DNA of 64,000 nt from Candidatus Dojkabacteria bacterium (GTDB taxonomy: Bacteria; Patescibacteriota; Dojkabacteria; B142; OLB20): assembly GCA_046753765.1 (NCBI GenBank), contig JBHHUN010000005.1:4430-68429 (forward strand). Reading direction: 5' to 3'. Shown here one piece after another: positions 14,332 through 62,183 of the stretch. The notes beneath the pieces are model-generated. The model made no database searches. It saw only the letters and a program-made list of their open reading frames with translations, and was not told the origin of the DNA. Each line of letters opens with the position of its first letter. Position 1 is the first letter of the stretch. A program made the translations under genes and the position numbers.

Positions 14332-15018
14332 CTATTTTGAAGCCTGTTCGGTGGTGTTCCTACCTTTGTGTTTTGGAGAATCCTTTGGATCTTTTGTTTT
14401 AACAGAGGAATCCAAGAGAAATTGTATCAGTGGTTGGTATTCGCCCTGAGTGACCCTAAAGAAGATATTGTTGCCCACCTCAGTAGACGAGAGGTAGTCG
14501 ATGTGTTGAACAAGATAGGTAACTACTTTTTTTAGATCGGCCTCTCCCTTCAAGACAACGACTCTCTCAGTAGTAAGTGAGGTTGGCTTTGGCCTGACCT
14601 CAAAATTCATGAGCAGGTGTCTGCCCCTTCGGACTACGAAAAAAGAATCAATGGTGCGCCATGTGAATAGCTGTCCGTGAGATTTTAGGCCCTTATTGGT
14701 CACTTCGTGTTGGACGGTTTTTGCAGGGATGGTATTAAGGGCATAGATAAAAAAGATGACTGCAATTACTGCGATGATGAGCCCGAAATTATTGGTTAGT
14801 GCTGCGTAAACAATGATCACAAGAGCTACTCCGGCAACCATTACGTACCAGTTTCTATCTTTGGGTTCGTGAATACGTTCAGGTGCGCTCCATTTATAGA
14901 TACTTTTGAGTGATTCTGCCTCTTCGAGAAGGATCTCGCGTTGCTCCTTGGCGAGCCTGATCTCCCGATCGAGCTTGGCCATCTCTTTCTCGTTTTGTTT
15001 TTTTGTGTCCTTTGCCAT
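14332..15018 (-). CDS. Membrane protein with coiled-coil N-terminus and bacterial PH-like C-terminal domain (tentative)
   Basis: Likely start is MAKDTKKQ. A TM hairpin precedes a C-terminal region resembling bPH_2/DUF304. Confidence 0.35.
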   Translation of the reverse strand: MAKDTKKQNEKEMAKLDREIRLAKEQREILLEEAESLKSIYKWSAPERIHEPKDRNWYVMVAGVALVIIVYAALTNNFGLIIAVIAVIFFIYALNTIPAKTVQHEVTNKGLKSHGQLFTWRTIDSFFVVRRGRHLLMNFEVRPKPTSLTTERVVVLKGEADLKKVVTYLVQHIDYLSSTEVGNNIFFRVTQGEYQPLIQFLLDSSVKTKDPKDSPKHKGRNTTEQASK

Positions 15019-15067
15019 GCGTTGTGGTACTACTGATATTCTAGTCTGGCGTAGGGGGGATTGCAAG

Positions 15068-15808
15068 CTAAATTGCGATGAGGAACAACAGTACGATTGA
15101 GGCAACATTTAGCCCGTAGAGGTAGAGAATATTCTTGCGCCGCTCAAGCCACTTTTTGTTGCGCTTCAACGATGATTTAAACTTTCCCGGTATCTTACCC
15201 TTTACAATCTTTTTATAGGACTCGCTGATTATCCTTTCTCCACCGGGGACGGCAATTAAGAAGTACTTACTCGGAAGATCCTTAAAGAAGGTAAACAAAA
15301 AAATGCCAAAGGCGACTCCGACCACGGGGGACCTCCAAAATTTAAGCTTATCAAAACCCTCGTATGGAGCGTCCTTTACAGCTCCCCCGATTGCAACTAT
15401 TACCCCACCAACAAGGGCCAGCCACAGGTTGTCAGCACTGAAATCAATAACAAAGAAAGTAGCCAAGAGGAAAGCAATCAGCAGGACTCCCAAGACAAAT
15501 TTGATACCGTAGTTAAGTTTAAAGTTTAGGTCAGAGGGGATTTGGTACTTACTTTGATCTTCTCTCCGAAGGAGCGCTTTGTATATTTCGGTAAGGCTTC
15601 TTTCAAAGGCGATCACAAGTAGTGTAACTATAAAAATTGGGAGGTTAGGGTTGAGTAGATAGAGGTAAATTGCAACAAATCCACCGATCACAAGGCTTCT
15701 TGCCACCTTGATGCCCTCAAATTTTTCCACCAACAGGTCGCCGTATACCCCCCAAAGGATTGCATTTGAAGAGCCAATAATGCCTGCGACAAGATAGGCG
15801 AGAAACAT
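15068..15808 (-). CDS. Polytopic membrane protein, unknown function
   Basis: 246 aa with at least 6 TM helices. Confidence 0.45.
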   Translation of the reverse strand: MFLAYLVAGIIGSSNAILWGVYGDLLVEKFEGIKVARSLVIGGFVAIYLYLLNPNLPIFIVTLLVIAFERSLTEIYKALLRREDQSKYQIPSDLNFKLNYGIKFVLGVLLIAFLLATFFVIDFSADNLWLALVGGVIVAIGGAVKDAPYEGFDKLKFWRSPVVGVAFGIFLFTFFKDLPSKYFLIAVPGGERIISESYKKIVKGKIPGKFKSSLKRNKKWLERRKNILYLYGLNVASIVLLFLIAI

Positions 15809-42813: not shown

Positions 42814-43557
42814 ATGAAAGTTAACTATTGCGTAAAAGGCGAGGGAAGAACGATCATTCTACTGCATGGTTGGGGTGGATCTATCGGCAGCCTCGAGAAG
42901 TTGCAGCAGGAGCTTGCTGATATGGGCTTTCAGGTGTTTAATCTTGATCTGCCTGGCTTTGGCGACAGCGGGATCCCCGGAAAAGCCATGACACTTGATG
43001 ACTATGTTGAGTACCTTGATAAACTGGTCACGCGGTTAAATATATACAAACCGATCTTTGTTGGGCACTCGTTTGGGGGAAAGTTGGCAATGAAATATGC
43101 AATTAACAAACCAGGCACTTTATCAAATCTGGTTGTAATTGATGCGTCCGGGATAAACCCGCGCAACAGTGCTAAAAGGTCGCTACTGTATCTTCCTGCT
43201 AAGATTTTTGGTGCCGTCTTTGATCTTCCCGGATTAAAGCTGGTAAAGCCGATAGTACGAAAGCTTTTCTACAAGTTTGTTGTTCGGGAGCATGATTACG
43301 TGAAGTCGGACCATATAAGGCAGACCTTTCAAAACATAATTTCTGAGCATTTAGATGGTAAACTGGACCAGATTAAAACCGATACTCTTGTGATCTGGGG
43401 TGAGAAGGATACTGTCACACCGCTGTGGCAGGGGCAGCAACTTGCAAGCAAAATAGCTGGCTCACGTTTTGAGGTAGTCGAAGGTGCAAAACACTCGCTT
43501 CCACTTGAGATGCCCGAGGTTGTTGCCAGGATTATTTACAGCTATCTGAACAATTGA
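42814..43557 (+). CDS. Alpha/beta-fold hydrolase
   Basis: IILLHGWGGS and the nucleophile elbow GHSFGG. Confidence 0.8.
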   Translation: MKVNYCVKGEGRTIILLHGWGGSIGSLEKLQQELADMGFQVFNLDLPGFGDSGIPGKAMTLDDYVEYLDKLVTRLNIYKPIFVGHSFGGKLAMKYAINKPGTLSNLVVIDASGINPRNSAKRSLLYLPAKIFGAVFDLPGLKLVKPIVRKLFYKFVVREHDYVKSDHIRQTFQNIISEHLDGKLDQIKTDTLVIWGEKDTVTPLWQGQQLASKIAGSRFEVVEGAKHSLPLEMPEVVARIIYSYLNN

Positions 43558-45350
43558 TATCTATGTTGGCTTTAATGGCGCTACTCATATTTTTCCTGCT
43601 GCCGGCTTATTTGGTAGTCTTTCAGAACTTGCTCTGGTACATATATCTTTGGCAGATAAAGGAGTACCGTGTTGACAGGGTGTATTCACATTTCAGGTTT
43701 GAGGATAAGTTTGATCGCTCAAGTTTGAGCTTTCTCCTTATTAAGTTGGCTCTGGTTTTTACCTCAATGCTATACCTGTTTTTTCCGCGCAGCCTGGCAC
43801 TGTTGGTTACACCACTTCTGGCATTTGTTCTCTACCTTGCAATGCTTGAGCGTATGGCAAGAAATCTAATCGGACGAAGGCTGCAAAGGCCCGCAATCAA
43901 AAGCGCACGTAATATTTTGATTTTGCTGTGGAGTGTAGCCGTTCTACTTCTTCCCGCAGCGCTTTTATTTGGATGGCTCAGGAGTTTGCCTGTTCCGGTT
44001 GAACCTGTTGGAAGCCTGGTTGAGCTTGAGCAACAAACAAGTATAAACATCCTTCCTCTGCCTTTGATACTGATTGTTCTTGCTACCATAGTCGCGGTCA
44101 CTACTGATCTGTTGACTCATTTGGTTGTGTTTTTAGGTGTACTCTTAACAAATCCGATGGCATCCATCAAAAGAAGAGGTCTTATTAGAAAGGCAAAGCA
44201 GAAACTTGGACGAAGCAAGAAACTCAAGATAGTTGCAGTTACAGGCAGTTACGGAAAAACAACTACAAAAGAGCTCATCTATGAACTAGTTAAAGATACA
44301 TATACAACCGTAAAGACACCCGAGAATAAGAACACCGATGTTGGCATAGCCCAAACAATTCTGGAGAGTATCAATGAAAACACAGAAGTACTGATTGCCG
44401 AGATGGGGGCATACCATATCGGGGAGATTGCAGATTCAACAAGACTGGCACCACCAGATATTGCGGTTGTAACAGGAGTTGACCAGCAGCATATAAGTTT
44501 ATTTGGGACCATAGAAAACACGTTTAAAGCCAAGTTTGAGATTGTGCAGGGACTAAAGCCAGAGGGGATTGCAATTTTAAATGGTAATAACGAGTACACT
44601 TTGAACATGGCTGCAAAAACCGACAAGAAGAAGCTTCTGTATTTTGCGGTTGATAATACAAATTTTACCGTCACAGAGGTTGATGAGGAGAAACAGAGGG
44701 TTAAGTCAAAGTCCAAGTTTCCGGCAGATTCAAATCTCTATGCGACCACGATAGTTCAGACAAATGAGGGGATTGCGTTTGATCTTAAGTACAAAGGGGA
44801 GAAGCATCATGTTAAGACAAAGTTTAAGGCGTCTCACAATATTTCTAACCTTCTTGCTGCGGTTTCGGTTGCGGTAGAGCTTGGTGTCCCGGTTGAAAAG
44901 GTAGTTGGACGTATCCAGGAGGGTGAGCTGAGCGACAAGTATCTTGCAGTAGACGAGGGTTTAGGTGGGGCAACAATTATCGATGACGGATACAATTCAA
45001 ATCCAACTGGGTTTTTAGAGGCGCTTAAGTTTTTAAAGGGGTTTGAGACAAAAGGGAAGAGGTGGATTATGACTCAAGGGGTCATAGAGCTCGGTCAGGA
45101 GCAGGATAGCCTTTATGGAAGGTTTGCCGAGCAGATCGCTTCGAGCTCAGATGGCTTAATAACTTCAGACAAAGTTTTGGCAGAGGCCGTCAACGAGAAA
45201 AGCCCGAAGTTTCCTGTTTATCTGGTAAAATCCGGCCCGGGCTTTGTTGACACCTACACTCGCAGAGTTAATAAAGGTGACACTGTGTTAATAGAAGGAC
45301 GGTTCGAGCCGGTAACAATGGAGGCAATTACAAAATCAGAGGATGATTGA
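43554..45350 (+). CDS. murF: Mur-ligase family protein (MurF-like) with ~200-aa polytopic membrane N-terminal domain replacing the usual soluble N-domain
   Basis: Residues 1-200 hold about 5 TM helices. Then the Mur ligase ATP-binding motif VTGSYGKTTTKE and the C-terminal DDGYNSNPTGF. Confidence 0.65.
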   Translation: MISMLALMALLIFFLLPAYLVVFQNLLWYIYLWQIKEYRVDRVYSHFRFEDKFDRSSLSFLLIKLALVFTSMLYLFFPRSLALLVTPLLAFVLYLAMLERMARNLIGRRLQRPAIKSARNILILLWSVAVLLLPAALLFGWLRSLPVPVEPVGSLVELEQQTSINILPLPLILIVLATIVAVTTDLLTHLVVFLGVLLTNPMASIKRRGLIRKAKQKLGRSKKLKIVAVTGSYGKTTTKELIYELVKDTYTTVKTPENKNTDVGIAQTILESINENTEVLIAEMGAYHIGEIADSTRLAPPDIAVVTGVDQQHISLFGTIENTFKAKFEIVQGLKPEGIAILNGNNEYTLNMAAKTDKKKLLYFAVDNTNFTVTEVDEEKQRVKSKSKFPADSNLYATTIVQTNEGIAFDLKYKGEKHHVKTKFKASHNISNLLAAVSVAVELGVPVEKVVGRIQEGELSDKYLAVDEGLGGATIIDDGYNSNPTGFLEALKFLKGFETKGKRWIMTQGVIELGQEQDSLYGRFAEQIASSSDGLITSDKVLAEAVNEKSPKFPVYLVKSGPGFVDTYTRRVNKGDTVLIEGRFEPVTMEAITKSEDD

Positions 45351-46365
45351 ACAGGAAAAGATTACAGATAAGCATATTTGGGAGGAGTTTATCACTTCAA
45401 GTGGACTCCCTACCTCTTTTTTTCAGTCCTGGAACTGGGGGGAGTTTGAGAAAGAGAGGGGCTCCAAAATCCACAGACTCGGCTTTTACGATGCAGGTGA
45501 TCTGATCGGGATTGGTCTGGCCATCGAAACAGATGCAAAACGTGGACGGTATCTCCATTTCAGGAACGGGCCTGTGATTAACTGGAAAGATGACTTCTCT
45601 GCGCACGAGATTATGGGGCACATTTATAAGTATGGCAAAAAAGAGGGCGTTGATTTCATTCGTATCAGTCCACTTGTTGAGCCTGGAGCCATTGGTCAAT
45701 TCGTGATTAAGGGTTCAAATTACACAGAAAGTCAGATGCACGACGTTGATGCTGAGATCACATGGATGCTCGATCTGACTCAGCCACTTGGGAAAATCCA
45801 GGAGAATATGCGCAAGAATACACGCTACTATATCCGCAAGGCTGAGCGCGATGGTGTTGAAATAACGAGTACAACTGATGTTAAATACCTAAACGATTTC
45901 TGGAAGATCTATCAGGATACGGTAAAAAGGCAAAAGTGGACTGCATATAGCTTCGACTATATCAGAACTGAGTTCGAGAGGTTTAGCAGGGACAACCAGG
46001 CAAAACTGTATCTTGCGAAATATAAGGGGGCGTTTATTGCAGGCGCAATCTTCATCTATCACAACAATCAGGCCTACTACCATCATTCAGGAAGCCTGAC
46101 CAAGTACCGAAAGCTGTCCGCGCCTTACCTGCTGCAGTGGGAGTCGATTAAGGATGCCAAAAAGAGAGGATTAAAGCTTTATAACTTCTTTGGCATTGCC
46201 CGCGACGACAACCCCAACCACCCGTGGCACGGCCTTACCTTTTTTAAGAAGGGGTTCGGAGGGTGTGAACAGAGGTGGATTCATGCAAAGGACCTACCAC
46301 TGAAATTCCGTTACTGGCTCACGAATTTTTATGAGAGGTTGGAGAGGAAGAAGAGGGGTTACTAG
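45343..46365 (+). CDS. FemAB-family peptidyl/aminoacyl transferase (peptidoglycan interpeptide bridge formation type)
   Basis: 340 aa with a GNAT-like duplication pattern typical of FemABX, including FxxWNWGEF. Overlaps the murF-like stop by 8 nt. Confidence 0.55.
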   Translation: MIEQEKITDKHIWEEFITSSGLPTSFFQSWNWGEFEKERGSKIHRLGFYDAGDLIGIGLAIETDAKRGRYLHFRNGPVINWKDDFSAHEIMGHIYKYGKKEGVDFIRISPLVEPGAIGQFVIKGSNYTESQMHDVDAEITWMLDLTQPLGKIQENMRKNTRYYIRKAERDGVEITSTTDVKYLNDFWKIYQDTVKRQKWTAYSFDYIRTEFERFSRDNQAKLYLAKYKGAFIAGAIFIYHNNQAYYHHSGSLTKYRKLSAPYLLQWESIKDAKKRGLKLYNFFGIARDDNPNHPWHGLTFFKKGFGGCEQRWIHAKDLPLKFRYWLTNFYERLERKKRGY

Positions 46366-46384
46366 TATAGCTTGAGCTACAGGG

Positions 46385-46987
46385 TTGCTTTTACATGTTC
46401 CCGTGCAGGCAGCATGGACGTACGGTGATGATTATCCATATCCAAACGGGTCTGGTGTTGATCCCTGGAATATGTATATTAGACAGTGCACTTCTTACTC
46501 CGCTCACAAGGCAGATCAGATAATCGGGAACTTCAATAATCAAATGGAAGGACCAAATGGTACTTCCGGTACGTTTGGGAATGCAAAGAATTGGGATGAA
46601 AATGCAACTTCTATAGGATTCCCCGTGCTAACTTCACCGAAGGTGGGTACGATTACGTCTGTATACCAGAATAAAGAAGGCGCAGGAAACTACGGACACG
46701 TTGCATACATAGAAACCGTGCATACTAATGGGAAGTTTGATCTCTCAGAGTACAATTGGTGGCCTAATTCCCGGTCTTACAATGAAAGGTATAACCGCCA
46801 GAACTCACAGTGGTATACTTTCATTGACTTTGGAGGTGGCTCATGTAGTCCTTCCCCAAATCAGGATTGGATCATTACATCAGACTGTGAAATAACAAGC
46901 AATATTAACTTCGACTTTACAAATTACAAAATAGTTATTCAGAATGGAGCAAAACTTGACATCACAAACGGAGCGAAAATCTACTAA
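46385..46987 (+). CDS. CHAP-domain protein (cysteine/histidine-dependent amidohydrolase/peptidase)
   Basis: Catalytic Cys in RQCTSYSAHKADQ and His in YGHVAYIETV. A short C-terminal beta-repeat tail follows. Confidence 0.65.
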   Translation: MLLHVPVQAAWTYGDDYPYPNGSGVDPWNMYIRQCTSYSAHKADQIIGNFNNQMEGPNGTSGTFGNAKNWDENATSIGFPVLTSPKVGTITSVYQNKEGAGNYGHVAYIETVHTNGKFDLSEYNWWPNSRSYNERYNRQNSQWYTFIDFGGGSCSPSPNQDWIITSDCEITSNINFDFTNYKIVIQNGAKLDITNGAKIY

Positions 46988-47651
46988 GAAGACAATTAAA
47001 GTCCCGGTAATAATAATTGGGGTAGCAATCATCCTTTCCATCAGCGTAGTATTCGTGCTTGCACGAAAGGGGTTTGAGGGCTTAGATCAAACTCCAACTA
47101 CGAGCTCTGTTACTTCAGCCCCTACCTTGACCGAAACCCCTTCATCCACACCGGACAGAGTAGTTATGACTCAATATGATTATTCAGATATATATGCCGA
47201 CTATCACACGGATTCGAAAATTATATTTGAATTTCCCACAAGCGCAGAAATTAATTCCGAAGCAAGGGTACTCAACGTGGCAATAGATCATGTGATTACT
47301 CTCGAAACAGGAGAAGTAGTCTTGCTAGATTTGAATGGGACAGCTTCGAACAAGATTCAAGAGGAGCTAGAATTCAAGATGGATGAGTACTACAGGATAG
47401 ACCCCCAGAATCCTGATGGGCCAATCAAAGTGAATAACAATTCGAACTACCAGGCAGTTGTCACTAATTCAGGTGTCAATAAGTACGGAAGTCGCTACAA
47501 ACAATTCTCAATCGACAAAGACAGTTTAGTAACTATTTTTGAATTTCCTAGAGATGACGATAAAGGCAGTTGGTACATATACCTTAGTATTGATTCCCTG
47601 GAACCCCCCGAAGAGTACCAACTCATATTTGACTCAATTAGAGAAGAATAA
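46944..47651 (+). CDS. TM-anchored exported protein with PT/S-rich linker, unknown function
   Basis: TM helix VIIIGVAIILSISVVFVLA, then a TSSVTSAPTLTETPSSTP linker, then a soluble domain. Confidence 0.4.
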   Translation: MEQNLTSQTERKSTKKTIKVPVIIIGVAIILSISVVFVLARKGFEGLDQTPTTSSVTSAPTLTETPSSTPDRVVMTQYDYSDIYADYHTDSKIIFEFPTSAEINSEARVLNVAIDHVITLETGEVVLLDLNGTASNKIQEELEFKMDEYYRIDPQNPDGPIKVNNNSNYQAVVTNSGVNKYGSRYKQFSIDKDSLVTIFEFPRDDDKGSWYIYLSIDSLEPPEEYQLIFDSIREE

Positions 47652-47737
47652 GGAAGAACTAGCCAGAACTCACAACCTGCTGACACACCACCTCCCCTGA
47701 TGCTACAATTCACCAGCTAATCTAACGATCACATATC

Positions 47738-49231
47738 TTGGCACACGTAAGAACACGTTTTGCACCAAGCCCCACAGGCTCACTGCATATCGGTGGCATC
47801 CGGACAGCCCTCTACGCTTATGCTATGGCAAAAAAGCACGGTGGTGAGTTTGTGCTGCGAATAGAAGACACCGATCGCAATCGCTACGTTAAAGGCGCAG
47901 AAGAGGAGATCTTTGCTGTCCTTGAAGCGTACGGTCTTATCCCCGATGAAAGCACTAACCACGAAGGCAAGTTTGGCCCATATCGTCAATCTGACAGAAA
48001 AGAGGTCTATCTGAAGTATGCTCGCAAACTCGTAGAAAACGGTCACGCATATTATAGTTTCGAAACTAAAGAGGACCTTGATCAAATAAGAAAAAGGGCG
48101 ATGGAGAACAACGAAAGAGTTGTATATCGCTCATCTTACAGAGACCTCCCATTAGAGAAGGCGCTCGCAAAGGTGGAAGCAGGAGAAGAATACGTAATAA
48201 GGCAGAAGATGCCTGAGGGCGAAGAGGTCACTTACGTTGATCCCCTTCAGGGAAAGATGGCCTTCAAAACTGATGAGGTAGACGAAGGCGTGCTTCTAAA
48301 ATCCGACGGACTGCCGACATACCATCTAGCAGTTGTAGTTGATGATCACCTGATGCAGATAACACACGCATTCCGCGGGGTAGAGTGGATATCTAGCCTG
48401 CCAAAGCATATCTTGTTGTATAAAGCCTTCGGCTGGGAGATGCCGCAGTACGTGCATCTTTCACTCATACTCGACCCTGGCGGCGGAAAGCTCTCAAAAC
48501 GAAAAGGCACAGTTGCCGCTGGTACTTTCCTGGAAGAAGGCTATCTTCCCGAGGCGATGCTCAACTTCCTGATGCTTCTAGGCTGGTCGTCACCCGAAGA
48601 GCGAAAGCATGGCGAGCAAGAAAGAGAGCTATTCTCGCTGGATGAATTTGTTGAGATGTTTTCGATTGACGGCCTTAATAAGAGTAGCCCAACCTTCGAT
48701 AGAGAGAAGCTGCTTTGGTTTAACTCAAACTATCTGCAAAAAGCGGACACGAAAAAACTCGCAGAAGCCTTTATTAGTTGGCTGGAACGATACGCGAATG
48801 ATCCGGAGCTCTTGAAACTGATCGAAGAGAAAGACACGGACTTTCTTGAGAGGATATTGGTACTCGAACAACAGAGGGTCAAACTTCTCTCAGAGCTTCC
48901 CGGAGCGATAATGCTGTTTTATGGCCGCCCCGAGAAAGTGAGCCTGGACAAAGTTAAGCGTCTTAAAAAACTACCCCCTGAGATGGGGGACAAGATATTC
49001 ACTGAGTTTCTTGGAAAGCTTGCAGCACACGAGAGTTTCACAGATTGGGACCAGGAAAACTGGGAGCAGGATGTGAGAAGTATTGCAGATGGCCTAAAGC
49101 TTAAAGCGGGAGAGGTTTTTATGACGCTCCGCATCGGCGTAACCAGTTCAGATGTATCACCACCACTTTATGAAACAATGGAGATCCTTGGAAAAGAAGA
49201 GGTAACTGAGCGCTTAAAGCGATATCTTTAG
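47738..49231 (+). CDS. gltX: Glutamyl-tRNA synthetase (GlxRS)
   Basis: HIGH-type motif PSPTGSLHIGGIRTALYAY and KMSKS-type KLSKR. Confidence 0.9.
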   Translation: MAHVRTRFAPSPTGSLHIGGIRTALYAYAMAKKHGGEFVLRIEDTDRNRYVKGAEEEIFAVLEAYGLIPDESTNHEGKFGPYRQSDRKEVYLKYARKLVENGHAYYSFETKEDLDQIRKRAMENNERVVYRSSYRDLPLEKALAKVEAGEEYVIRQKMPEGEEVTYVDPLQGKMAFKTDEVDEGVLLKSDGLPTYHLAVVVDDHLMQITHAFRGVEWISSLPKHILLYKAFGWEMPQYVHLSLILDPGGGKLSKRKGTVAAGTFLEEGYLPEAMLNFLMLLGWSSPEERKHGEQERELFSLDEFVEMFSIDGLNKSSPTFDREKLLWFNSNYLQKADTKKLAEAFISWLERYANDPELLKLIEEKDTDFLERILVLEQQRVKLLSELPGAIMLFYGRPEKVSLDKVKRLKKLPPEMGDKIFTEFLGKLAAHESFTDWDQENWEQDVRSIADGLKLKAGEVFMTLRIGVTSSDVSPPLYETMEILGKEEVTERLKRYL

Positions 49232-53743: not shown

Positions 53744-56700
53744 ATGATGCGACTTAAAACTCTGGCCGTATACTTGCTGAGTGCCTTGATTGTGTTGGGC
53801 ACTAACGTTATCCTTCTTCCGGTAAATAATGTCTCTGCACAATCTGAACCGGATGGTGCCGAAGAAGTTTTAGATCGTGCCGATGAGTACGATCTCGACC
53901 ATCTGTTTGTCAAATACAAAAATAGCGATGAACCTCAGTTGGTAGAAGTTGATCCTGCAAGCAATGGTCAGATAACGGTATTTTCGGAGAGTAATAAGTA
54001 TGATGGCGACATCGTCGAAAAGCAAGAGCGGCTCGCCGATAAATTCAATCAGCTTCTCGATAACCCGAGAGTTGAATACGTTCAACCTCAATACATTTAT
54101 TCAATTGGAGCCTGGAGCCGAAGCGGGACACAGGATACACCAGACGATTTTGATACGACATCACCGTATAACCATTGGTACTACGACGCATCTAATGTTC
54201 GCGAGATGTGGCAGGATCAGGACTGTCAGGGGGGCGGTGCAGGTTGTGGTGGAGATTCAAATGCTACTGTTGCTGTAATTGATACTGGCTTGGCATACGA
54301 ATCCAGAACTTCGGCCTGGGGAGACAGCTTTGCCCCAAATGATGACATGTTCGGAGGCAGTAATATCAATCTTTATACCAATACTGCTGAAATCAATGGC
54401 GATGCGGGCACCAACTGTTTTGATGAGATAGACGATGATGGTAATGGTTTTGTCGATGATTGCTATGGTTTTAATTCAGCAGAATACATCTACTGTTCCT
54501 TCACTACATCCTGCACAACAACCCAGGAGGCAGAGATGGGTCATCCAAATGATGATGGTGGACACGGAACATACGTAACTGGTCTAATAGCTTCGTTGGT
54601 GGATAACAACCTGGGGAGTGTCTCTCCTGCACATAATGTGACGATAATGCCGATCAAAGCTTCGTTTTTCCACTCCGGCTCGTTTGGTTCTATGGAGCTG
54701 TGGTGGGCGATTGACTATGCAGTTAATCAAGGGGCAGATGTTATTAATCTGAGCCTTGCTGGCCCTACCTTTGATCAGGGGTTGTCCGATAAGCTCCAGT
54801 GGGCAAAAGATAATGGGGTGACAGTTGTGGCAGCAACTGGAAATACTAACTCCAGCGTTTACTATCCAGCAGCTTTTGACTCTGTTATTGCTGTAGGAGC
54901 GGTAAGGCCAAATGGAACCCGAGCTTTTTATTCCAACTATGGGACTGATATTGATATCACTGCCTATGTCGGGAATGGAGGGGGGATAGGGGATACTGTC
55001 TATCAACGGAGTTATACCTGTTTCTTCCTTAATCCGAACTGCTATTCAACAAACGCGTATACCACATTTTCAAATGGTTATGGAATCGGTACCTCTTATG
55101 CGTCACCACAAGTTGCAGCGATGGTCGCGTTAATAATTTCTGCCAAGCCATCGATCACCAGGCAGGGAATAGATAACCACTTATTTGGCGATGCGACAGA
55201 TCTTGGTACAGTTGGCTGGGATAATCAGACAGGGTGGGGAGTAATCGATTTTGAAAAGACGTACAAAAATGTTTCCAGCAATGGAGCACCCACTTTGGCA
55301 ATCCTTGAGCCAAATGGAGTAGGTGATACTGGAGATACGTCTTTTAATATTACGTGGACAGACAGTGACCCTGACGATGATGCGGTGATCAATTTCTACA
55401 GGGATAATGATGGCGCCGGATTTGATGGCGTATTGATAAGCGGATGTGATAACATTGCCCAGTCAGCTGCTTCGGATACATGCAAATTCGACACAAGACC
55501 GCTGCCAGCAGATGATTACTACATCTACGGTTGCATAACTGACTATGTTAATCCACTCGACTGTAGCTACGGCGGAGGACCTATCACAATATCTCACACC
55601 CCCATCAGGGAGTTTGGTTTAGCTGTTGTCAGTACCGATTGGGTGCCAATATCGTTTCAGAAGACATACAGTGATCCGCCAATAGTATTCGCAGAGGTAT
55701 CAAGCGAGAATGGAACCAACAAGATATTTGCAGACATTAGAAACGTTACTTCCGCGGGCTTCGAAGTCAGGATAGAGGAGAACACAATGTCGGGATGGAA
55801 TGGGATACACGGAAACGAGGATATAAGCTGGTACGCAGTTCAAAGCAATACAGGAGCAGAAAAAGTTGGTGAATCCGTGATAAATACTGACTGGGTGAGT
55901 ATTGACTTTCTGACATCCTTTGCCAGCATTCCAGAGCTATTCGTCATGGTGCAGTCAGAGAATGGTGGCAATATTGTTTATGCTGATGTTAGAAATGTGA
56001 GTACAACAGGATTCGATGTCAGACTCGAAGAGCCAGTCGGTTGGAACGGGCTCCATTCAGATGAATCGGTTGGGTGGATTGCGTTTGAAACAAATCCCGT
56101 AACAGGCGGGCAGGAGGGCAAAGCCACAACGGATCAGGATTGGAGTACAGTATCTTTTACTCCAGCTTTTTCCGAGCCACCAGTGTTAATAGTCTCTGTT
56201 GATACGGAAAATGAGGGGAATTACGTAAATGCGGATATTCGTAACCTGGATGCAAACGGATTTGAGTTTATGATGGAGGAAGATATCCTAATCCAGAATG
56301 GTATCCATGGAGATGAGACCGTGAGCTGGGCTGCGTTTCCACTGAGTACAATCAATTCACAATCCGGAACCGTATCTATAAATAGTAACTGGACAGAGAT
56401 ATATTTTCCACAATCATTTGAGTCAAAACCGAAAGTTTTTGTTGAGATAAATACAGAAAACGGACAAGACACAGCTGAGGTAGACATAAAAGATGTAATG
56501 CCGTATTCATTTACGGCCAGGATAGAAGAAGATAAGCTTGCGGGTTGGGGAGCTGGCGGACACACTACAGAAACCATCACATGGTACGCAATTTTAAATC
56601 CCGGTTCGGGTGAACAGGTTGGAAATAGCAGCGTAGACCACAATTGGAAGACCGTAACCTTTTCCTCACCGTTTACTTCTACTCCAAAAGTCTTTGCGGA

Positions 56701-57100
56701 TGTGCAAACAGAAAACGGTGGTCAGACTGCAGCAGTCGATATGAAAAATATAACGACGACCGCATTCGAGGTCAAAGTAGAAGAGGATCCAAGAGCCGGA
56801 TATGATGGAAACCATGCGGTCGAAACTGTCTCATGGCTCGCGTTTGAGACACCCTCAATGGGAGAGACAGGTACAGTAGCTGTAGATCAGGACTGGACAG
56901 CGGTGGATCTGAGCAGCTTTGGTTTCAGCGGTGTGCCTAAATTACTGGCTGACATTCAGACCGAGAACGGAACCCACACTGTTCAGGTTGATATTCGAAA
57001 TCTCTCCAGTACCGGGTTTGATGTAAGAATGGAAGAGGAACCCAGGATATGGGATGGACTTCATGCTCTGGAAACGGTTTCTTGGCTGGCTTGGGAATAG
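53744..57100 (+). CDS. Secreted subtilisin-like serine protease (S8) with N-terminal propeptide-like region, Ig/FN3-like spacer and six C-terminal ~82-aa tandem repeats (possibly H-type-lectin-like)
   Basis: Signal peptide. S8 triad contexts TVAVIDTGLAYE (Asp), HGTYVTGLIAS (His), GTSYASPQVAAMVALI (Ser), and a calcium-loop-like EIDDDGNGFVDD. Six repeats of the pattern DxxW-x-V-x-F-(P/S)-x-F-x-P-x-V(F/L)...(Q/N)TENGG...VD(I/M)(R/K)N(V/I/L)(T/S)xxGF(E/D)V(R/K)(I/V/L/M)EE...G-x-H-x-(D/E)-x-(V/I)-(S/T/G)-W-(Y/L/I/A)-A-(V/F/I/W). Confidence 0.75.
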   Translation: MMRLKTLAVYLLSALIVLGTNVILLPVNNVSAQSEPDGAEEVLDRADEYDLDHLFVKYKNSDEPQLVEVDPASNGQITVFSESNKYDGDIVEKQERLADKFNQLLDNPRVEYVQPQYIYSIGAWSRSGTQDTPDDFDTTSPYNHWYYDASNVREMWQDQDCQGGGAGCGGDSNATVAVIDTGLAYESRTSAWGDSFAPNDDMFGGSNINLYTNTAEINGDAGTNCFDEIDDDGNGFVDDCYGFNSAEYIYCSFTTSCTTTQEAEMGHPNDDGGHGTYVTGLIASLVDNNLGSVSPAHNVTIMPIKASFFHSGSFGSMELWWAIDYAVNQGADVINLSLAGPTFDQGLSDKLQWAKDNGVTVVAATGNTNSSVYYPAAFDSVIAVGAVRPNGTRAFYSNYGTDIDITAYVGNGGGIGDTVYQRSYTCFFLNPNCYSTNAYTTFSNGYGIGTSYASPQVAAMVALIISAKPSITRQGIDNHLFGDATDLGTVGWDNQTGWGVIDFEKTYKNVSSNGAPTLAILEPNGVGDTGDTSFNITWTDSDPDDDAVINFYRDNDGAGFDGVLISGCDNIAQSAASDTCKFDTRPLPADDYYIYGCITDYVNPLDCSYGGGPITISHTPIREFGLAVVSTDWVPISFQKTYSDPPIVFAEVSSENGTNKIFADIRNVTSAGFEVRIEENTMSGWNGIHGNEDISWYAVQSNTGAEKVGESVINTDWVSIDFLTSFASIPELFVMVQSENGGNIVYADVRNVSTTGFDVRLEEPVGWNGLHSDESVGWIAFETNPVTGGQEGKATTDQDWSTVSFTPAFSEPPVLIVSVDTENEGNYVNADIRNLDANGFEFMMEEDILIQNGIHGDETVSWAAFPLSTINSQSGTVSINSNWTEIYFPQSFESKPKVFVEINTENGQDTAEVDIKDVMPYSFTARIEEDKLAGWGAGGHTTETITWYAILNPGSGEQVGNSSVDHNWKTVTFSSPFTSTPKVFADVQTENGGQTAAVDMKNITTTAFEVKVEEDPRAGYDGNHAVETVSWLAFETPSMGETGTVAVDQDWTAVDLSSFGFSGVPKLLADIQTENGTHTVQVDIRNLSSTGFDVRMEEEPRIWDGLHALETVSWLAWE
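55625..57097 (+). repeat. Six in-frame tandem ~82-aa domain repeats within the first S8 protein
   Basis: Repeats begin at VSTDWVPISF, INTDWVSIDF, TDQDWSTVSF, INSNWTEIYF, VDHNWKTVTF, VDQDWTAVDL and each ends with VSW/ITW + A. Confidence 0.7.
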
Positions 57101-57116
57101 TTAATACTATAAACAC

Positions 57117-60100
57117 ATGTTGTTTGTACGAAGACATTTACCTCTAATTGTATTTTCATTATTCTGGATTTTTGCAGCCGGAGCGCTGTTTATGTTGTCG
57201 GATTGGAACGTAACAGGGCAGGTTCTGGTAGGAAATCAGGCTAAAGCCAGAGAGATTGTCAATCGCAGCAGGGATTTTGACCTGAACAATGTGGTTGTTG
57301 TCTATAAAGACGAGCCGGATGAGGTAAGGCTAATCTCTGTTTCCGATACCGTCGAGACACGATCTTCAGGAGAGAGAACCGAGATAGCTGACCTCTACAT
57401 CACTGGTGAGATTGATCCCGACCTTTTTGAAATACAACAGAAGAAATCCAGGCTCGAACAAAAGATATACGATCTGCTCGAGGACGAGAGCGTGCTCCAC
57501 GTTCAGCCTCAATACATCTACCACACGAATTCATGGGGACGCTCTGGCAGTCAGGATACCCCTGATGACTTTGATACGATTTCGCCAACTACTGGTGAGC
57601 ACTGGTACTACGAGATGGCCCACCTTCGTGAAATGTGGCAGGACCAGGATTGTTTTGGTAGCGGGCCAAATTGCGGAGGAAATACCGGAGGCGTAGTTGC
57701 TGTAATAGACACAGGGCTGGCATATGAGACAAGAAAATCAGCATGGCAGGATAATTTTGCAAAGAACGATGATATGTTCAACGGAACCAGTATCACTCTC
57801 TATACCAACGCGGGAGAGATACCTAATAACCTTATTGACGATGATGGTAACGGTTACCGAGATGATTACAACGGCTTCAACGCCGACGATTACGTTTTTT
57901 GTCTCCCCCCCGAACCTCAGGATCCACCGTGTACGACCGCAGAGTGGGCCGAGGAGGGGCATGCTTACGACGATGACGGGCACGGAACATACACAACCAG
58001 CATGATAGCTTCATTGGTAGATAACACTTTTGGTAGTGTATCCCCGGGGTTCAATCTCACGATAATGCCAATTAAGGCCTCTGATTTTCACTCACCCAGT
58101 TTTGGTACGGCTGAGCTTGTTGCCGCTATTGACTACGCCATGAACAACGGTGCCGATGTAATAAATATGAGTCTTGGCGGGCCGACTGATGATCCTGTAT
58201 TGAGCGCCAAAATCGACGAGGCAGTTGCAGCAGGCGTATTTGTTGTCGCTGCAAGTGGTAATGGGGGAGGTGCTGTAGGGTATCCAGCAGCAAACACAGG
58301 CACATTTGCAGTTGGCGCCGTTGCTGCCGATGATGCCAGGGCTTGTTACTCCAGTTTTGGAGCAGAACTTGATATGGTGGCCTATGTTGGTGACGGTGAT
58401 GGTTCGTGCCCTATCTCTGTTATAGGAGAGGGGACGGCGGCTTATCAAAGAACTTACTCCTGTTTTTTCACTTCGCCCGACTGTAATGATCTAGGTGGCA
58501 GTGAAGACTACGAGACGTTTTCGACAAGCTATAGTCTTGGTACATCATTTGCCGCTCCGCAGGTATCTGCGATGGCAGGAATCCTAAGAGCGATTGGCCC
58601 AAGCACGCCAGTTTCAGAGCTTGAATCTATCCTTATAGGTAATGCAACCGACCTAGGGCCCGCAGGGTTTGATACTGCTACCGGCTATGGTGTTTTGGAT
58701 TGGGAGGCGACATTTGCAGCTGCTATTGCCAGTGAAGCACCGACCTTATCGGTCATAGAGCCAAATGGGGTCGGCGATGGTGCAGATGCATCATTTAACA
58801 TCACCTGGACTGATACAGACTCTGATAACGACGCAGCAATCAACTTCTATTACGATCTTGACTCCTCAGGGGAGGATGGAACCTTAATAGCAGACTGCTC
58901 TAACATTAGTGAGGACGATGAAACAGACAGTTGTACGTGGGATATGCGGTTTATGCCCGAAGACGACTATTACATCTATGGATGCATTGCAGACTTCTTT
59001 AACCCTGTAGATTGCAATAACTACGGCGCTGGTCCAATAACTTTAACTCACGCTGTTAAACGCGACTGGAACACACATACTGTAACTACAAGCTGGAGAA
59101 CTATCAGTTTTACAACCAGTTTTGACACTGTTCCAATAGTAAGTGCACAGATTACATCAGAATGGGGAAGGGATAGAATCTATCTGGATGTAAAAGATGT
59201 AACTATAAGTGGGTTTAGTACACGAATACGAGAAAACACTGTTACAGGATGGAATGGTGGTCATGGAAGTGAGGAGTTGAGCTGGTACGCTGTTCAAAGC
59301 ACCAGTACGGGAGAAATTGTAGGTCAGATAGATCTCACTGGCCCGGGATGGACTAGTGTAACTTTTCCACAGGCATTCGGGTCAACGCCTCATGTGTTTG
59401 CTAACCTTCAAACCCAGAACGATACAGCGATCGCCTATGTTGATCTGAGAAACATCACAACCACGGGTTTTGAAGCCAGGATAGAAGAGCCGACGGGGCT
59501 TGCAAATGACCACGCAACAGAAACGGTTGGCTGGGTGGCATTCAGTGATCACCCCGATGCTGAAGAGGGCAGTGTTATAGCGAATCATGTGCGCAAGACT
59601 GTGACATATGCTACTTCGTTTACTGCACCACCTGTGCTGCTAGCGCAGATTCAGACCAACAACGACGGAAGAAGATCAACGGTCGATGTAGGCGGAACAA
59701 AGGACTACCGCAGCAGGCTTTGGGTAGGAGAGGATACGAAAGTGCATGATGGAATTCATGATAACGAAACAATAAGCTGGGCGGCGTTCCCTTATACACC
59801 GCCTAACGATGTAGGAGTTGCTCAGTCCCTCACTGACGACTGGACAGAATACCCATTCGACCAGCCCTTTGAGGACACGCCAAAGATGTTCGCTGATATT
59901 AACTCTGAAAATGGGACGGACACAGTAGATGTTGACCTGAGAAAAATTACAAGGCGTAGCTTTCAAGCCAGGATTGAGGAGGATCCGAAGGCGGGATGGA
60001 ACAACAAACACATGGACGAGGATATAACCTGGTATGCTTTTTATATAAGACCCACAGGTAGCAAAAACGGTAACCTAACCACAAATCAAAACTGGACTAA

Positions 60101-60548
60101 CTCTGGAATAGGTGGTGGCGGATTTGGTTCGACACCGATGGTGTTTGCCGAGATTCAAACAGATAATGGAGGTGATACGGCAGCAGTAGATGTTAAGGCT
60201 ATCACCCCGACAGGCATGAAGCTCAGAGTAGAAGAGGATAAAGTAGCTGGCCATAACGGCAATCACACAAATGAAACAATCTCATGGTGGGGTTTCACAT
60301 CTGCACCCTTCGGTCAAGCGGGTCTGGATTCAGTTGATCACAACTGGAAAACGGTAACATTTCCGATTGCGTTTAGTACCGTCCCCAAATTGCTTTTTGA
60401 AGTAAACAGTGAAAATGGCGGGCAAACAGCTATGGTAGATGTACGCAACATCACTACTGCTGATTTTGAAGTGAGAGTGGAGGAAGAGCCAAAAAGATAC
60501 GATGGGAGCCATGCTTTCGAAGATGTGGTCTGGCTCGCCTGGGAGTAA
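57117..60548 (+). CDS. Paralogous secreted S8 subtilisin-like protease with the same architecture (six C-terminal ~82-aa repeats)
   Basis: Only 16 bp after the first copy. VVAVIDTGLAYE, HGTYTTSMIAS, GTSFAAPQVSAMAGIL and DDDGNGYRDD. Six repeats ending at VVWLAWE, the same C-terminal end as copy 1 (VSWLAWE). Confidence 0.75.
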   Translation: MLFVRRHLPLIVFSLFWIFAAGALFMLSDWNVTGQVLVGNQAKAREIVNRSRDFDLNNVVVVYKDEPDEVRLISVSDTVETRSSGERTEIADLYITGEIDPDLFEIQQKKSRLEQKIYDLLEDESVLHVQPQYIYHTNSWGRSGSQDTPDDFDTISPTTGEHWYYEMAHLREMWQDQDCFGSGPNCGGNTGGVVAVIDTGLAYETRKSAWQDNFAKNDDMFNGTSITLYTNAGEIPNNLIDDDGNGYRDDYNGFNADDYVFCLPPEPQDPPCTTAEWAEEGHAYDDDGHGTYTTSMIASLVDNTFGSVSPGFNLTIMPIKASDFHSPSFGTAELVAAIDYAMNNGADVINMSLGGPTDDPVLSAKIDEAVAAGVFVVAASGNGGGAVGYPAANTGTFAVGAVAADDARACYSSFGAELDMVAYVGDGDGSCPISVIGEGTAAYQRTYSCFFTSPDCNDLGGSEDYETFSTSYSLGTSFAAPQVSAMAGILRAIGPSTPVSELESILIGNATDLGPAGFDTATGYGVLDWEATFAAAIASEAPTLSVIEPNGVGDGADASFNITWTDTDSDNDAAINFYYDLDSSGEDGTLIADCSNISEDDETDSCTWDMRFMPEDDYYIYGCIADFFNPVDCNNYGAGPITLTHAVKRDWNTHTVTTSWRTISFTTSFDTVPIVSAQITSEWGRDRIYLDVKDVTISGFSTRIRENTVTGWNGGHGSEELSWYAVQSTSTGEIVGQIDLTGPGWTSVTFPQAFGSTPHVFANLQTQNDTAIAYVDLRNITTTGFEARIEEPTGLANDHATETVGWVAFSDHPDAEEGSVIANHVRKTVTYATSFTAPPVLLAQIQTNNDGRRSTVDVGGTKDYRSRLWVGEDTKVHDGIHDNETISWAAFPYTPPNDVGVAQSLTDDWTEYPFDQPFEDTPKMFADINSENGTDTVDVDLRKITRRSFQARIEEDPKAGWNNKHMDEDITWYAFYIRPTGSKNGNLTTNQNWTNSGIGGGGFGSTPMVFAEIQTDNGGDTAAVDVKAITPTGMKLRVEEDKVAGHNGNHTNETISWWGFTSAPFGQAGLDSVDHNWKTVTFPIAFSTVPKLLFEVNSENGGQTAMVDVRNITTADFEVRVEEEPKRYDGSHAFEDVVWLAWE
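59070..60545 (+). repeat. Six in-frame tandem ~82-aa domain repeats within the second S8 protein
   Basis: Repeats begin at NTHTVTTSWRTISF, LTGPGWTSVTF, ANHVRKTVTY, LTDDWTEYPF, TNQNWTNSGIGGGGFGSTPMVF, VDHNWKTVTF. Confidence 0.65.
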
Positions 60549-60623: not shown

Positions 60624-62183
60624 ATGACCATACTGCGGAAAAACAAAACATTTCTAATCTTGATCCTGTTGATCTGGGGAGCACTGCTGTTAGTGGGTGT
60701 TCAGGCGGGGGCTCCTGACCCTGAGCCGGCTGGCACAGTGGAAGACGTAAACTCAGGTGAAGTTACTCCACCAGAGACATTGGGAGTAATTGCAACCTCA
60801 AGTCCAACCCCGACACTACCTCTAGATAATGAAGTATCTGAAGAAATCGAAGATACCAGTGCTCCGAGCCCGAAACAAAGCACAAAACCAAAATCTCCCG
60901 GAGCTACGAAATCACATCAGGAGAACGATTCGGGAGAAATCGACACACTAAATTTGGGAGATCTAGCGTCTGGCAGCTTCTTGTTCTCCGTAGACGAAGA
61001 TTTCTCGGCCTACGGCTTTCAGTGGGAAAGCGGATCGTTCACCTTCTCCTGGGATGGGATTAACTACCAGCCACCGACTTTGTTAGGCGAGCACGTAAGA
61101 GACAACTATGCTGGTCAGAAGGCAACTAATCTGTATTTTGGTGCCCCCGATTCTAAGAAGCTATATATAAAAACTGGTCGCGTAAGCGACCTCAAGCTCA
61201 GTTTAATAACACCAACAGAAAGCGATGATGGATTTGGTATTGCGGCAGGTGTAGCTGACTATATGGGGGCAACCTATACAGAGCTCCCAATAATCTCGCG
61301 AGCGCAGTGGGGGGCTGATGAGTCAAAAGCGTTGTGGGATCCATCTTATGGTCCGATTCAGAGAATCATTGTCCATCATACAGCCGGATCAAACAGCGCG
61401 AGCAACTGGGATGCTGTTGTGAGATCAATTTTTAACTACCACGCTGTAACCCTTGACTGGGGGGACATTGGCTATAACTACCTTATTGCCCCTAACGGAA
61501 ACATCTATGAAGGACGTAAAGGAGGGGAGGGAGCGACAGCCGCCCATACTTACCTGCATAACTATGGAAGTATAGGAATTGCCATGATAGGAACCTACTC
61601 CAGTGTACCGCCGAGCAGTGCCGCAATGGATTCGCTAAAAAGACTGATCGCAGAAAAATCTGCGGTTCATAATATCGACACAGTGACCTGGCAGTCAAAC
61701 TACTATGGTCACCGTGACTGGAACTCAACCACATGTCCTGGTACCACTTTATATGGAATTCTTCCGAATAAGGCCAACTGGATTAATTCCCACCAGGACA
61801 GTCAGTATCCTGAGGTCTTTGCAGCCCGTGCAGCCGCGGAACTGGCGTATGATGCTGCTAACCCTTTCCCAACACCACAAAAAACTGATCTCGTGATAAC
61901 GTTTGATCGACCATTCACAGTAAGTGAAGCTGAGATACAAGCAATGATCCCGCCATATAGCGGCATAAAAGTAAGTGGCGTATTCGGGAATAAGGTCCAT
62001 CTAACACTGATTAAATACTACGATGGGGGCTCACAGTTTATGGACTTCAGGTCCAAACTTCTACGCACTCTTTTCAGCCTTGATGGTGAGGTGAAGGATA
62101 TTGAGTATGTCGGCGACTTCTTCATCTTTGACGAAAATCTGGGTACACCGACTCCCACGCCATCCCCATCACCGACACCATAG
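60624..62183 (+). CDS. N-acetylmuramoyl-L-alanine amidase (Amidase_2/PGRP domain), TM-anchored with PT-rich linker and C-terminal domain of unknown function
   Basis: PGRP-like domain SRAQWGADESKALWDPSYGPIQRIIVHHTAGSN ... GDIGYNYLIAPNGNIYEGR ... HRDWNSTTCPG. N-terminal TM helix, a PT/S linker, and a C-terminal PTPTPSPSPTP tail. Confidence 0.75.
   Translation: MTILRKNKTFLILILLIWGALLLVGVQAGAPDPEPAGTVEDVNSGEVTPPETLGVIATSSPTPTLPLDNEVSEEIEDTSAPSPKQSTKPKSPGATKSHQENDSGEIDTLNLGDLASGSFLFSVDEDFSAYGFQWESGSFTFSWDGINYQPPTLLGEHVRDNYAGQKATNLYFGAPDSKKLYIKTGRVSDLKLSLITPTESDDGFGIAAGVADYMGATYTELPIISRAQWGADESKALWDPSYGPIQRIIVHHTAGSNSASNWDAVVRSIFNYHAVTLDWGDIGYNYLIAPNGNIYEGRKGGEGATAAHTYLHNYGSIGIAMIGTYSSVPPSSAAMDSLKRLIAEKSAVHNIDTVTWQSNYYGHRDWNSTTCPGTTLYGILPNKANWINSHQDSQYPEVFAARAAAELAYDAANPFPTPQKTDLVITFDRPFTVSEAEIQAMIPPYSGIKVSGVFGNKVHLTLIKYYDGGSQFMDFRSKLLRTLFSLDGEVKDIEYVGDFFIFDENLGTPTPTPSPSPTP

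Follow-up and report, generated by a model that had tools for sequence, protein, structure and literature searches.

MurF, which adds D-Ala-D-Ala to the N-acetylmuramic acid (MurNAc) tripeptide, is treated in textbooks as a soluble enzyme. Among the described Mur-family ligases, MurT lacks an N-terminal domain, acts on a membrane-bound substrate, lipid II, and has the MurF enzymes as its closest structural relatives (PMC6113224). MurE and MurF bind the substrate with its pyrophosphate where the N-terminal and middle domains meet, and the authors of the MurT structure proposed this boundary as the position of the membrane for an enzyme of lipid II, where an N-terminal domain would clash (PMC6113224). 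Mur enzymes are also found in fusions, and a 2023 survey of Mur chimeras lists MurE-MurF, MurC-Ddl, MurC-MurB, MurG-MurC, MurD-FtsW, and MraY-MurG (PMC10214165). The survey screened proteins of more than 600 residues from named species; neither the architecture described below nor the word "transmembrane" occurs in it (PMC10214165). Here we analyze a Mur ligase gene and its neighbors in a 64,000-nucleotide stretch of a Candidatus Dojkabacteria (WS6, Patescibacteria) genome (GenBank assembly GCA_046753765.1, contig JBHHUN010000005.1, positions 4,430 to 68,429; this whole stretch is called the window). The catalytic body of the encoded protein is of the MurF type, and domain 1, the uridine diphosphate (UDP)-binding domain of about 80 residues, is replaced by a membrane domain of five helices.

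The assignment of the catalytic body follows from profile, motif, and fold comparisons. Pfam recognizes Mur_ligase_M at residues 229-440 and Mur_ligase_C at residues 471-583 (Table 1), and of the NCBIfam families murF (TIGR01143) fits best, with 220.5 bits, the MurD, MurE, and MurC families scoring 65-69 bits and cyanophycin synthetase 59.7 bits. The family alignment A1 shows no variation at residues G231, S232, G234, K235, K239, N260, E283, H313, and E329. The C-terminal consensus of the family, IIDDxYNSNP...ELG, is represented in the window protein by IIDDGYNSNP and IELG and aligns to DDSYNANP of Pseudomonas aeruginosa MurF (4cvk); motifs of the DDxYNANP/(M)xELG type we take to be specific to MurF. 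A Foldseek search of the PDB with the model of the full protein returned MurF structures as its ten best matches (E 7e-24 to 4e-19, about 380-395 columns), followed by MurE. The TIGR01143 match begins at position 67 of the 418 in the profile, which corresponds to residue 217 of the query. Similarly, solved MurF chains (the top seven matches of a phmmer search of the PDB are all MurF) align only from query residue 210 or so, at their own residues 69-117 approximately, and domain 1 is represented neither by a PF01225 match nor in the profile and PDB alignments. The initial annotation had described a murF-like ligase with about five transmembrane (TM) helices in some 200 residues in place of the soluble N-terminal domain; this description holds, and the protein is not an ordinary cytosolic MurF with a normal N-terminal domain.

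Assignment to MurT or CapB was considered and is ruled out by the profile scores and the missing hallmarks. In particular, the MurT equivalog models gave 23.6 and 23.2 bits (cut-off 800), the 598 residues include no cysteine and hence no Cys4 ribbon, the C-terminal domain is Mur_ligase_C and not DUF1727, and there is no GatD neighbor. No CapB or PgsB family was found among the 25 NCBIfam matches at E≤0.01. The same data bear on a product outside peptidoglycan, such as a poly-amino acid of the CapB/PgsB or cyanophycin kind, or a lipid head group modified with peptide, in which case the hydrolase encoded upstream of the ligase would serve in turnover. CapB/PgsB is a membrane-associated Mur-family ligase that has no UDP-binding domain, pairs of synthase and hydrolase are common in lipid head-group homeostasis, and the weak matches to cyanophycin synthetase extend to the fold comparison (Foldseek E 4e-16). 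Nevertheless, MurF is far ahead in both sequence and fold, the C-terminal motif is of the MurF type, no CapB family was matched, and the neighbors in the family are Ddl, FemAB, MraY, and MurD/E rather than PgsC/PgsA or cyanophycinase, so that we regard such a product as very improbable.

The membrane domain was delineated by hydropathy, which detects five to six hydrophobic segments within residues 1-205, and by an AlphaFold2 (AF2) model of the full ligase built on a family alignment of 62 sequences (predicted local distance difference test score, pLDDT, 91.8; predicted template-modeling score, pTM, 0.87). The model contains long helices at residues 4-35, 55-76, 81-106, 118-144, and 169-220 and short ones at 40-50 and 153-161; the last long helix leaves the membrane as a stalk and runs straight into the strand of the P-loop (residues 225-230). 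The cytoplasmic loops 36-54, 107-117, and 200-224 carry 5, 4, and 10 Lys or Arg residues, respectively, and the outer loop 145-168 carries none and three Glu. Hydropathy, the AF2 helices, and this positive-inside charge count, rather than a dedicated TM predictor, give a predicted topology of N-out, five TM helices, and C-in, with the ligase part in the cytoplasm.

Modeled by itself, the membrane domain again yields a high pLDDT (93.9). Its model has no significant match in the PDB by Foldseek (best E 2.8, TM-score ≤0.25), and a Pfam search with residues 1-214 returned nothing but noise, even at E≤10. A phmmer search with the domain alone against 1.84 billion representative sequences found 73 proteins, nearly all of them 565-625 residues long and matched at the N-terminus; no other fusion partner was seen in this search, the reach of which is limited by its single-sequence query.

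Sequence conservation within the domain is concentrated on the cytoplasmic side. Two motifs, Q-x3-Y-x3-R at the end of TM1 and KKP-x3-T-x-R in the second loop, lie on cytoplasmic loops, and the TM helices show little sequence conservation. Among 87 unique N-termini of the family, drawn from many phyla, the first motif retains Q34 in 99%, Y38 in 99%, and R42 in 86% of sequences, and the family alignments A1 and A2 likewise show little or no variation at Q34 and Y38. The corresponding values for the second motif are 79% for K111, 79% for P113, 95% for T117 (Ser in the window protein), and 71% for R119; P201 (94%) and A214 (99%) are conserved as well. Short relatives with one or two hydrophobic segments retain the Q-x3-Y core and a T-x-[KR] core. 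The membrane domain is more than a generic anchor.

We further considered whether the fusion could be an artefact, in which a frameshift or a mis-called start merged a small membrane-protein gene with a truncated murF. The longest open reading frame (ORF) begins with a rare TTG codon that overlaps the stop codon of the upstream gene, as such an error might; the frame is free of stops over 598 codons, however, and the same architecture recurs at 87 loci in independently assembled genomes of different phyla. Homologues with 30-42% identity, 565-625 residues long, are collinear with residues 5-214 at their own N-termini, and AF2 renders the membrane and ligase parts as one rigid unit. The uninterrupted frame and the conserved architecture rule out such a fusion, to which we assign a negligible probability, and the N-terminal 200 residues or so belong to the ligase, as had been proposed. 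The overlap noted in the initial annotation between the start of the ligase ORF and the stop of the hydrolase gene holds in part: it amounts to 4 nucleotides for the TTG at 43554 and disappears if translation starts at the ATG of codon 4 (43563) or of codon 8 (43575). The codon-8 start is used in an NCBI protein from a metagenome-assembled genome (P0001; 591 residues), 100% identical to the ligase and named "Mur ligase family protein". The spacing between the two genes is at most 17 nucleotides whichever start applies.

Table 1. Genes, domains, and motifs of the membrane MurF locus (window coordinates)
Feature	Position	Strand	Basis
Alpha/beta-hydrolase, 247 aa, soluble, upstream partner	42814..43557	+	PF00561, E 4.8e-29
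Membrane-integrated MurF-type ligase, 598 aa counted from TTG	43554..45350	+	Pfam, NCBIfam, AF2, Foldseek
Membrane domain, aa 1-199, five TM helices, N-out/C-in (predicted)	43554..44150	+	AF2, charge count; no Pfam match
Cytoplasmic-face motif Q34-I-K-E-Y38-R-V-D-R42, end of TM1 and start of amphipathic helix	43653..43679	+	Conservation
Second cytoplasmic-loop motif, aa 111-119, family consensus KKP-x3-T-x-R	43884..43910	+	Conservation
Mur ligase central (ATP-binding) domain, P-loop G231-S-Y-G-K-T236	44238..44873	+	PF08245, E 7.5e-37
Mur ligase C-terminal domain, D477-D-G-Y-N-S-N-P and E512-L-G	44964..45302	+	PF02875, E 2.7e-08
FemX-like aminoacyl-tRNA-dependent transferase, 340 aa, no coiled-coil insert	45343..46365	+	PF02388, E 4.5e-44
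CHAP-domain peptidase, 200 aa, lineage-specific insertion	46385..46987	+	PF05257, E 5.4e-13

The membrane-MurF fusion is a large family and not a local oddity. A scan of one genome per GTDB species, supported by the family alignment, identified at least 586 relatives (tblastn) among the 600 pattern matches listed; the set of 87 non-redundant loci used throughout consists of the best 80 classified of the scan matches listed and of other fetched loci. Hydrophobic segments precede the P-loop in all 87, and nearly all of the best 120 homologues have two to six of them. By record title, the family occurs within the Patescibacteria in Saccharibacteria, Paceibacterota, Peribacteria, and Staskawicz-, Woese-, Gottesman-, Wildermuth-, and Yanofskybacteria. 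It was also detected in Poribacteria, in Anaerolineae and other Chloroflexota, in Bryobacteraceae and Senegalimassilia, in Bacteroidales (Muribaculaceae, Alistipes, Barnesiella, and others), in Christensenellaceae and other Clostridia, in Erysipelotrichaceae, and in Bacilli. Cultured carriers include Gracilibacillus massiliensis (locus L077), Sporosalibacterium faouarense (L069), and Duncaniella (P0099). The labels of some metagenome-assembled genomes seem doubtful; loci of the Patescibacteria type, for instance, are entered under "uncultured Gammaproteobacteria". Exact peptide patterns retrieved no close relatives from metagenome contigs.

The conserved partner of the ligase, left out of the trio of genes outlined in the initial annotation, is the upstream alpha/beta-hydrolase. 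Its PF00561 match scores 102.2 bits (gathering score 25.8), and the catalytic motifs are intact: the oxyanion HGWG, GHSFGG with Ser86, WG..D..TP with Asp198, and H226. Since the oxyanion, nucleophile, acid, and His motifs are at least 80% conserved across 78 partner sequences, the protein is likely to be an active enzyme. In 80 of 89 loci a gene for a hydrolase of about 245 residues directly precedes the ligase gene on its strand, mostly at gaps of -3 to +20 nucleotides, and in 82 of the 87 non-redundant loci the hydrolase lies within 7 kb of the ligase; the pairing spans the range from Dojkabacteria to Duncaniella. Searches of NCBIfam and the PDB for specific relatives gave generic esterase and lipase matches only. 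By analogy with the logic of LdcA and VanY, our guess is that the hydrolase, as an obligate partner, could trim or edit the terminus of the stem peptide. In two unrelated loci a gene of glycoside hydrolase family 3 (NagZ-like) adjoins the hydrolase-ligase pair (L008:7791-8846 and L090:4581-6131), and a link to muropeptide recycling is possible.

The genomic position of the pair in other bacteria suggests what the ligase does. The division and cell-wall (dcw) gene cluster surrounds it in 12 of the 87 loci, in nine of which mraY lies just downstream of the block, beside canonical MurC, MurD, and MurE. In particular, a 0.92-Mb Patescibacteria contig (L006) has the order mraW, ftsI, murA, murE, murC, murB, murD, hydrolase, membrane MurF, degT, femAB, mraY, ftsW, murG, ftsA, ftsZ; its MurE, MurC, and MurD score 403, 393, and 366 bits, all above the curated cut-offs, and the membrane form, with 211 bits to murF, is the sole MurF-like protein of the fetched cluster. 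The cluster of a Microgenomates contig (L007) resembles it, and two Poribacteria loci (L032 and L048) have murE, hydrolase, membrane MurF, ddl, mraY, murD, ftsW, murG, and murC. No second MurF-like ORF above 60 bits was found in the flanks fetched around the 87 loci. From this occupation of the murF slot beside canonical MurC, MurD, and MurE, and from the lack of another MurF-like ORF nearby, we infer that the ligase probably performs the core MurF step, the addition of D-Ala-D-Ala to the MurNAc-tripeptide, as an integral membrane form and not as a tailoring extra.

Several observations weigh against this assignment. The score of 220.5 bits does not reach the curated cut-off for murF, 288.6, nor do those of two relatives (211 and 244 bits), and the MurF reaction implies no role for the hydrolase. 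In the window the block lies outside any dcw or mraY context, divergent from ftsQ-ftsA-ftsZ, from which it is separated by rpsO, a thioredoxin gene, a YtxH-like gene, and two unannotated ORFs; phmmer and Pfam searches of the 64 kb found no other mur gene and no second Mur ligase, and a canonical MurF may be encoded elsewhere in the Dojkabacteria genome, beyond the sequence scanned. In Bacteroidales, Clostridia, and Bacilli the cassette could play an accessory part. Finally, one Dojkabacteria-type locus (L091) contains a second, soluble MurF-like ligase, which also has no domain 1.

This additional ligase, encoded downstream of the block (L091:11399-13431), has 461 residues, scores 189 bits to murF, and has its P-loop at about residue 36. 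As a candidate for a canonical MurF it is ruled out by the position of the P-loop, which leaves no N-terminal domain of any kind. A Peptidase_S51 gene (PepE/cyanophycinase-like) follows it, and the two could form a separate small ligase/peptidase system.

An alternative that is close to the view of the initial annotation, and that we consider unlikely, though far from negligible, is that a canonical soluble MurF is encoded elsewhere and the membrane ligase tailors or repairs lipid II in the manner of MurT after the hydrolase has removed the old terminus. The dipeptide or some other residue would then be added or re-added, and hydrolase, ligase, and Ddl together would rewrite stem ends at the membrane. 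Bacteroidales, Clostridia, and Bacilli, in which the cassette occurs, usually have a canonical murF. The absence of the UDP-binding domain, as in MurT, the conserved polytopic membrane domain, the partner hydrolase with its intact catalytic motifs, Ddl paralogues of 392-399 residues with VanG-type D-Ala-D-Ser ligases as their second-best score, and the location of the window gene outside a mur cluster are all consistent with such a role. It is opposed by the 12 loci in the dcw cluster, nine of them just before mraY and with canonical MurC, MurD, and MurE, by the absence of a canonical MurF from all 87 fetched flanks, and by the missing MurT hallmarks (Cys4 ribbon, DUF1727, and GatD).

If the ligase performs the core MurF step, the acceptor may be linked either to UDP or to the lipid carrier. 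The membrane domain joins the ligase at the very boundary at which the substrate pyrophosphate is bound in MurE and MurF: homology to MurF starts about 10-17 residues past the point where the last TM helix leaves the bilayer, and the near-invariant Q, Y, R, and T of the membrane domain sit there. On the model this makes a lipid-linked acceptor, undecaprenyl-pyrophosphate-tripeptide formed by a preceding MraY step, geometrically attractive, and we put it forward tentatively, as overall well short of an even chance. MraY is able to use the tripeptide nucleotide in vitro, so that the lipid route is chemically possible. By this route MraY would transfer MurNAc-tripeptide, the membrane MurF would then add D-Ala-D-Ala on the undecaprenyl-pyrophosphate carrier, and trimming or editing of the stem end would fall to the hydrolase partner; the hydrolase, the membrane MurF, and the Ddl paralogue of gut Bacteroidales, Clostridia, and Bacilli might then repair or rewrite the ends of stem peptides at the lipid level. 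About equally probable, given the core MurF step, though with a slight preference for the lipid-linked form, is UDP-MurNAc-tripeptide as the acceptor, recognized through a new site for uridine and pyrophosphate, with the product handed to MraY; the geometry suits this reading just as well. With either acceptor, the ligase would work at the membrane surface, using ATP to activate the C-terminal carboxylate of the tripeptide and joining it to D-Ala-D-Ala; the loop residues that are conserved would presumably bind the pyrophosphate region of the acceptor, and the FemX-like enzyme encoded next would attach a branch residue from aminoacyl-tRNA.

The two genes that follow the ligase in the window encode FemAB-type and CHAP-type proteins, as first annotated. 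The former overlaps the ligase stop by 8 nucleotides and matches PF02388 with 151.3 bits (gathering score 24). Among solved structures it is closest to Weissella FemX (1ne9, E 1.4e-10), and with 61.6 bits against a cut-off of 500 it falls short of the FemX equivalog, UDP-MurNAc-pentapeptide-lysine N6-alanyltransferase. Across the 87 loci, the gene after the ligase is Ddl in 54 and FemAB in 26, in 22 of the latter with a DegT gene in between, and the two never occur together. The FemAB loci are cassettes of the Patescibacteria type, a few differing in record title; FemAB follows the ligase directly in Dojkabacteria-type loci and comes after DegT in other Patescibacteria.

Two of the cassette Ddl proteins were scored as examples and, at 330 and 333 bits, exceed the cut-off of the D-Ala-D-Ala ligase subfamily (262). 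Cassette Ddl genes are long (L003:11621-12820 and L008:11472-12650), and their scores to the VanG-type D-Ala-D-Ser ligase, 226-264 bits, are high though below the cut-off of that family; the dipeptide made by the long Ddl may be other than D-Ala-D-Ala. The DegT/DnrJ/EryC1-family aminotransferase located between membrane MurF and FemAB (L005, L006, L007, and L091 among the 22 loci) best matches PseC- and LegC-like proteins, far under the cut-offs, and in many Patescibacteria its gene is part of the dcw cluster.

The Dojkabacteria-type order is hydrolase, ligase, FemAB, and then gltX, either directly or past one unrelated gene; the exception is L091, where DegT is inserted and gltX is absent. 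The gltX gene, encoding glutamyl-tRNA synthetase, follows the FemX-like gene in the window (within 45343-49231) and in L001, L089, and L090. This adjacency might hint at the aminoacyl-tRNA donor of FemAB; the region is syntenic, and the link is perhaps meaningless.

The CHAP protein scores 49.7 bits to PF05257 (gathering score 26) and retains the catalytic Cys (QCTSYS) and His (GHVAYI). No export signal was recognized: there is an in-frame stop just upstream, and the N-terminus, MLLHVPVQAAW, has no hydrophobic core. The window is the only one of the 87 loci with a CHAP gene, which is absent from the Dojkabacteria-type loci L001, L089, L090, and L091. A conserved trio that includes CHAP is ruled out by its absence from all related loci and the lack of a signal peptide. 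The proposal of the initial annotation that ligase, FemAB, and CHAP form a tailoring module for stem or cross-bridge is likewise not upheld, as CHAP is found at this single locus, the conserved partner is the hydrolase, and the block occupies the murF slot elsewhere. The CHAP gene shares its last 44 nucleotides with an ORF of 235 residues (46944-47651, plus strand) that has no family match and seemingly one TM segment. Together the two fill a variable slot between FemAB and gltX, where relatives have nothing or unrelated genes.

Elsewhere in the window, a 304-residue protein (8876-9790, minus strand) strongly matches PF18723 (E 2e-56), the helical domain of 5-hmdU DNA kinase, a family tied to phage DNA hypermodification and found here in a Patescibacteria chromosome region. 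Two adjacent paralogues of 1118 and 1143 residues (53744-60548, plus strand) combine subtilase S8 and H-type lectin domains and are followed by a protein with Amidase_2, an N-acetylmuramoyl-L-alanine amidase domain (60624-62183); this looks like a cluster of secreted protease and wall-hydrolase genes, perhaps of relevance to an epibiotic life. An ORF of 841 residues (16868-19393, minus strand) and two of about 250 residues (14332-15808, minus strand) have no Pfam match at E≤1e-5.

The above analysis indicates that a broad set of bacteria uses a form of MurF in which a conserved polytopic domain replaces the UDP-binding domain; in the Patescibacteria examined, members of the Candidate Phyla Radiation, and in Poribacteria it is apparently the only MurF, judging from the fetched flanks. 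Full-text literature searches, one of them swamped by the muscle protein MuRF, did not turn up any account of the hydrolase-ligase pair or of a MurF fused to a membrane domain, and the lipocone superfamily paper does not cover it. Databases label members of the family MurF or "Mur ligase family protein", the architecture being unremarked. Since the membrane form falls under the curated MurF thresholds, pathway reconstruction for reduced genomes is affected. Should the acceptor be UDP-linked, the enzyme would combine built-in channelling to MraY with a new mode of nucleotide-substrate recognition; should it be lipid-linked, the accepted order of the pathway would differ in these lineages, and rewriting of stem ends at the lipid level, if true, could bear on glycopeptide tolerance. 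The conserved hydrolase-ligase pair is defined and has carriers in culture, which makes the question of the acceptor testable.

Compared with the canonical MurF of Escherichia coli (1GG4), P. aeruginosa (4CVK), and Thermotoga maritima (3ZL8), the membrane form shares the central and C-terminal domains, the P-loop, the catalytic residues, and the DDxYNxNP and ELG motifs. The linkage to ddl and mraY is also common to both, relatives of the membrane form occupying the murF slot of the dcw cluster. It differs in having a five-helix domain of about 200 residues instead of domain 1, in scoring under the curated cut-off, and in its alpha/beta-hydrolase neighbor, which canonical murF lacks. With MurT of the MurT/GatD complex (Staphylococcus aureus and Streptococcus pneumoniae) it has in common the Mur-family fold, the missing UDP-binding N-terminal domain, and an adjoining gene for a hydrolytic partner. 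MurT, however, is soluble, with a short disordered N-terminus, a Cys4 zinc ribbon, DUF1727, and a glutaminase partner, whereas the membrane MurF is free of cysteines, has five TM helices and a standard Mur_ligase_C, and is partnered by an alpha/beta-hydrolase, and the resemblance is one of design only. Unlike CapB/PgsB, it best matches MurF, has no CapB match, and is surrounded by peptidoglycan genes and not by pgsC or pgsA. The FemX-like protein encoded downstream is close to Weissella viridescens FemX in length (340 and 335 residues), in the absence of a coiled-coil insert, and as its best solved match, but its score is far below the FemX equivalog cut-off. Finally, the MurD-FtsW and MraY-MurG chimeras similarly join enzymes of cytoplasmic steps physically to polytopic proteins of the same pathway (PMC10214165). 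These chimeras consist of two complete known enzymes placed end to end, whereas the TM part of the membrane MurF is no known enzyme and replaces a domain of the ligase.

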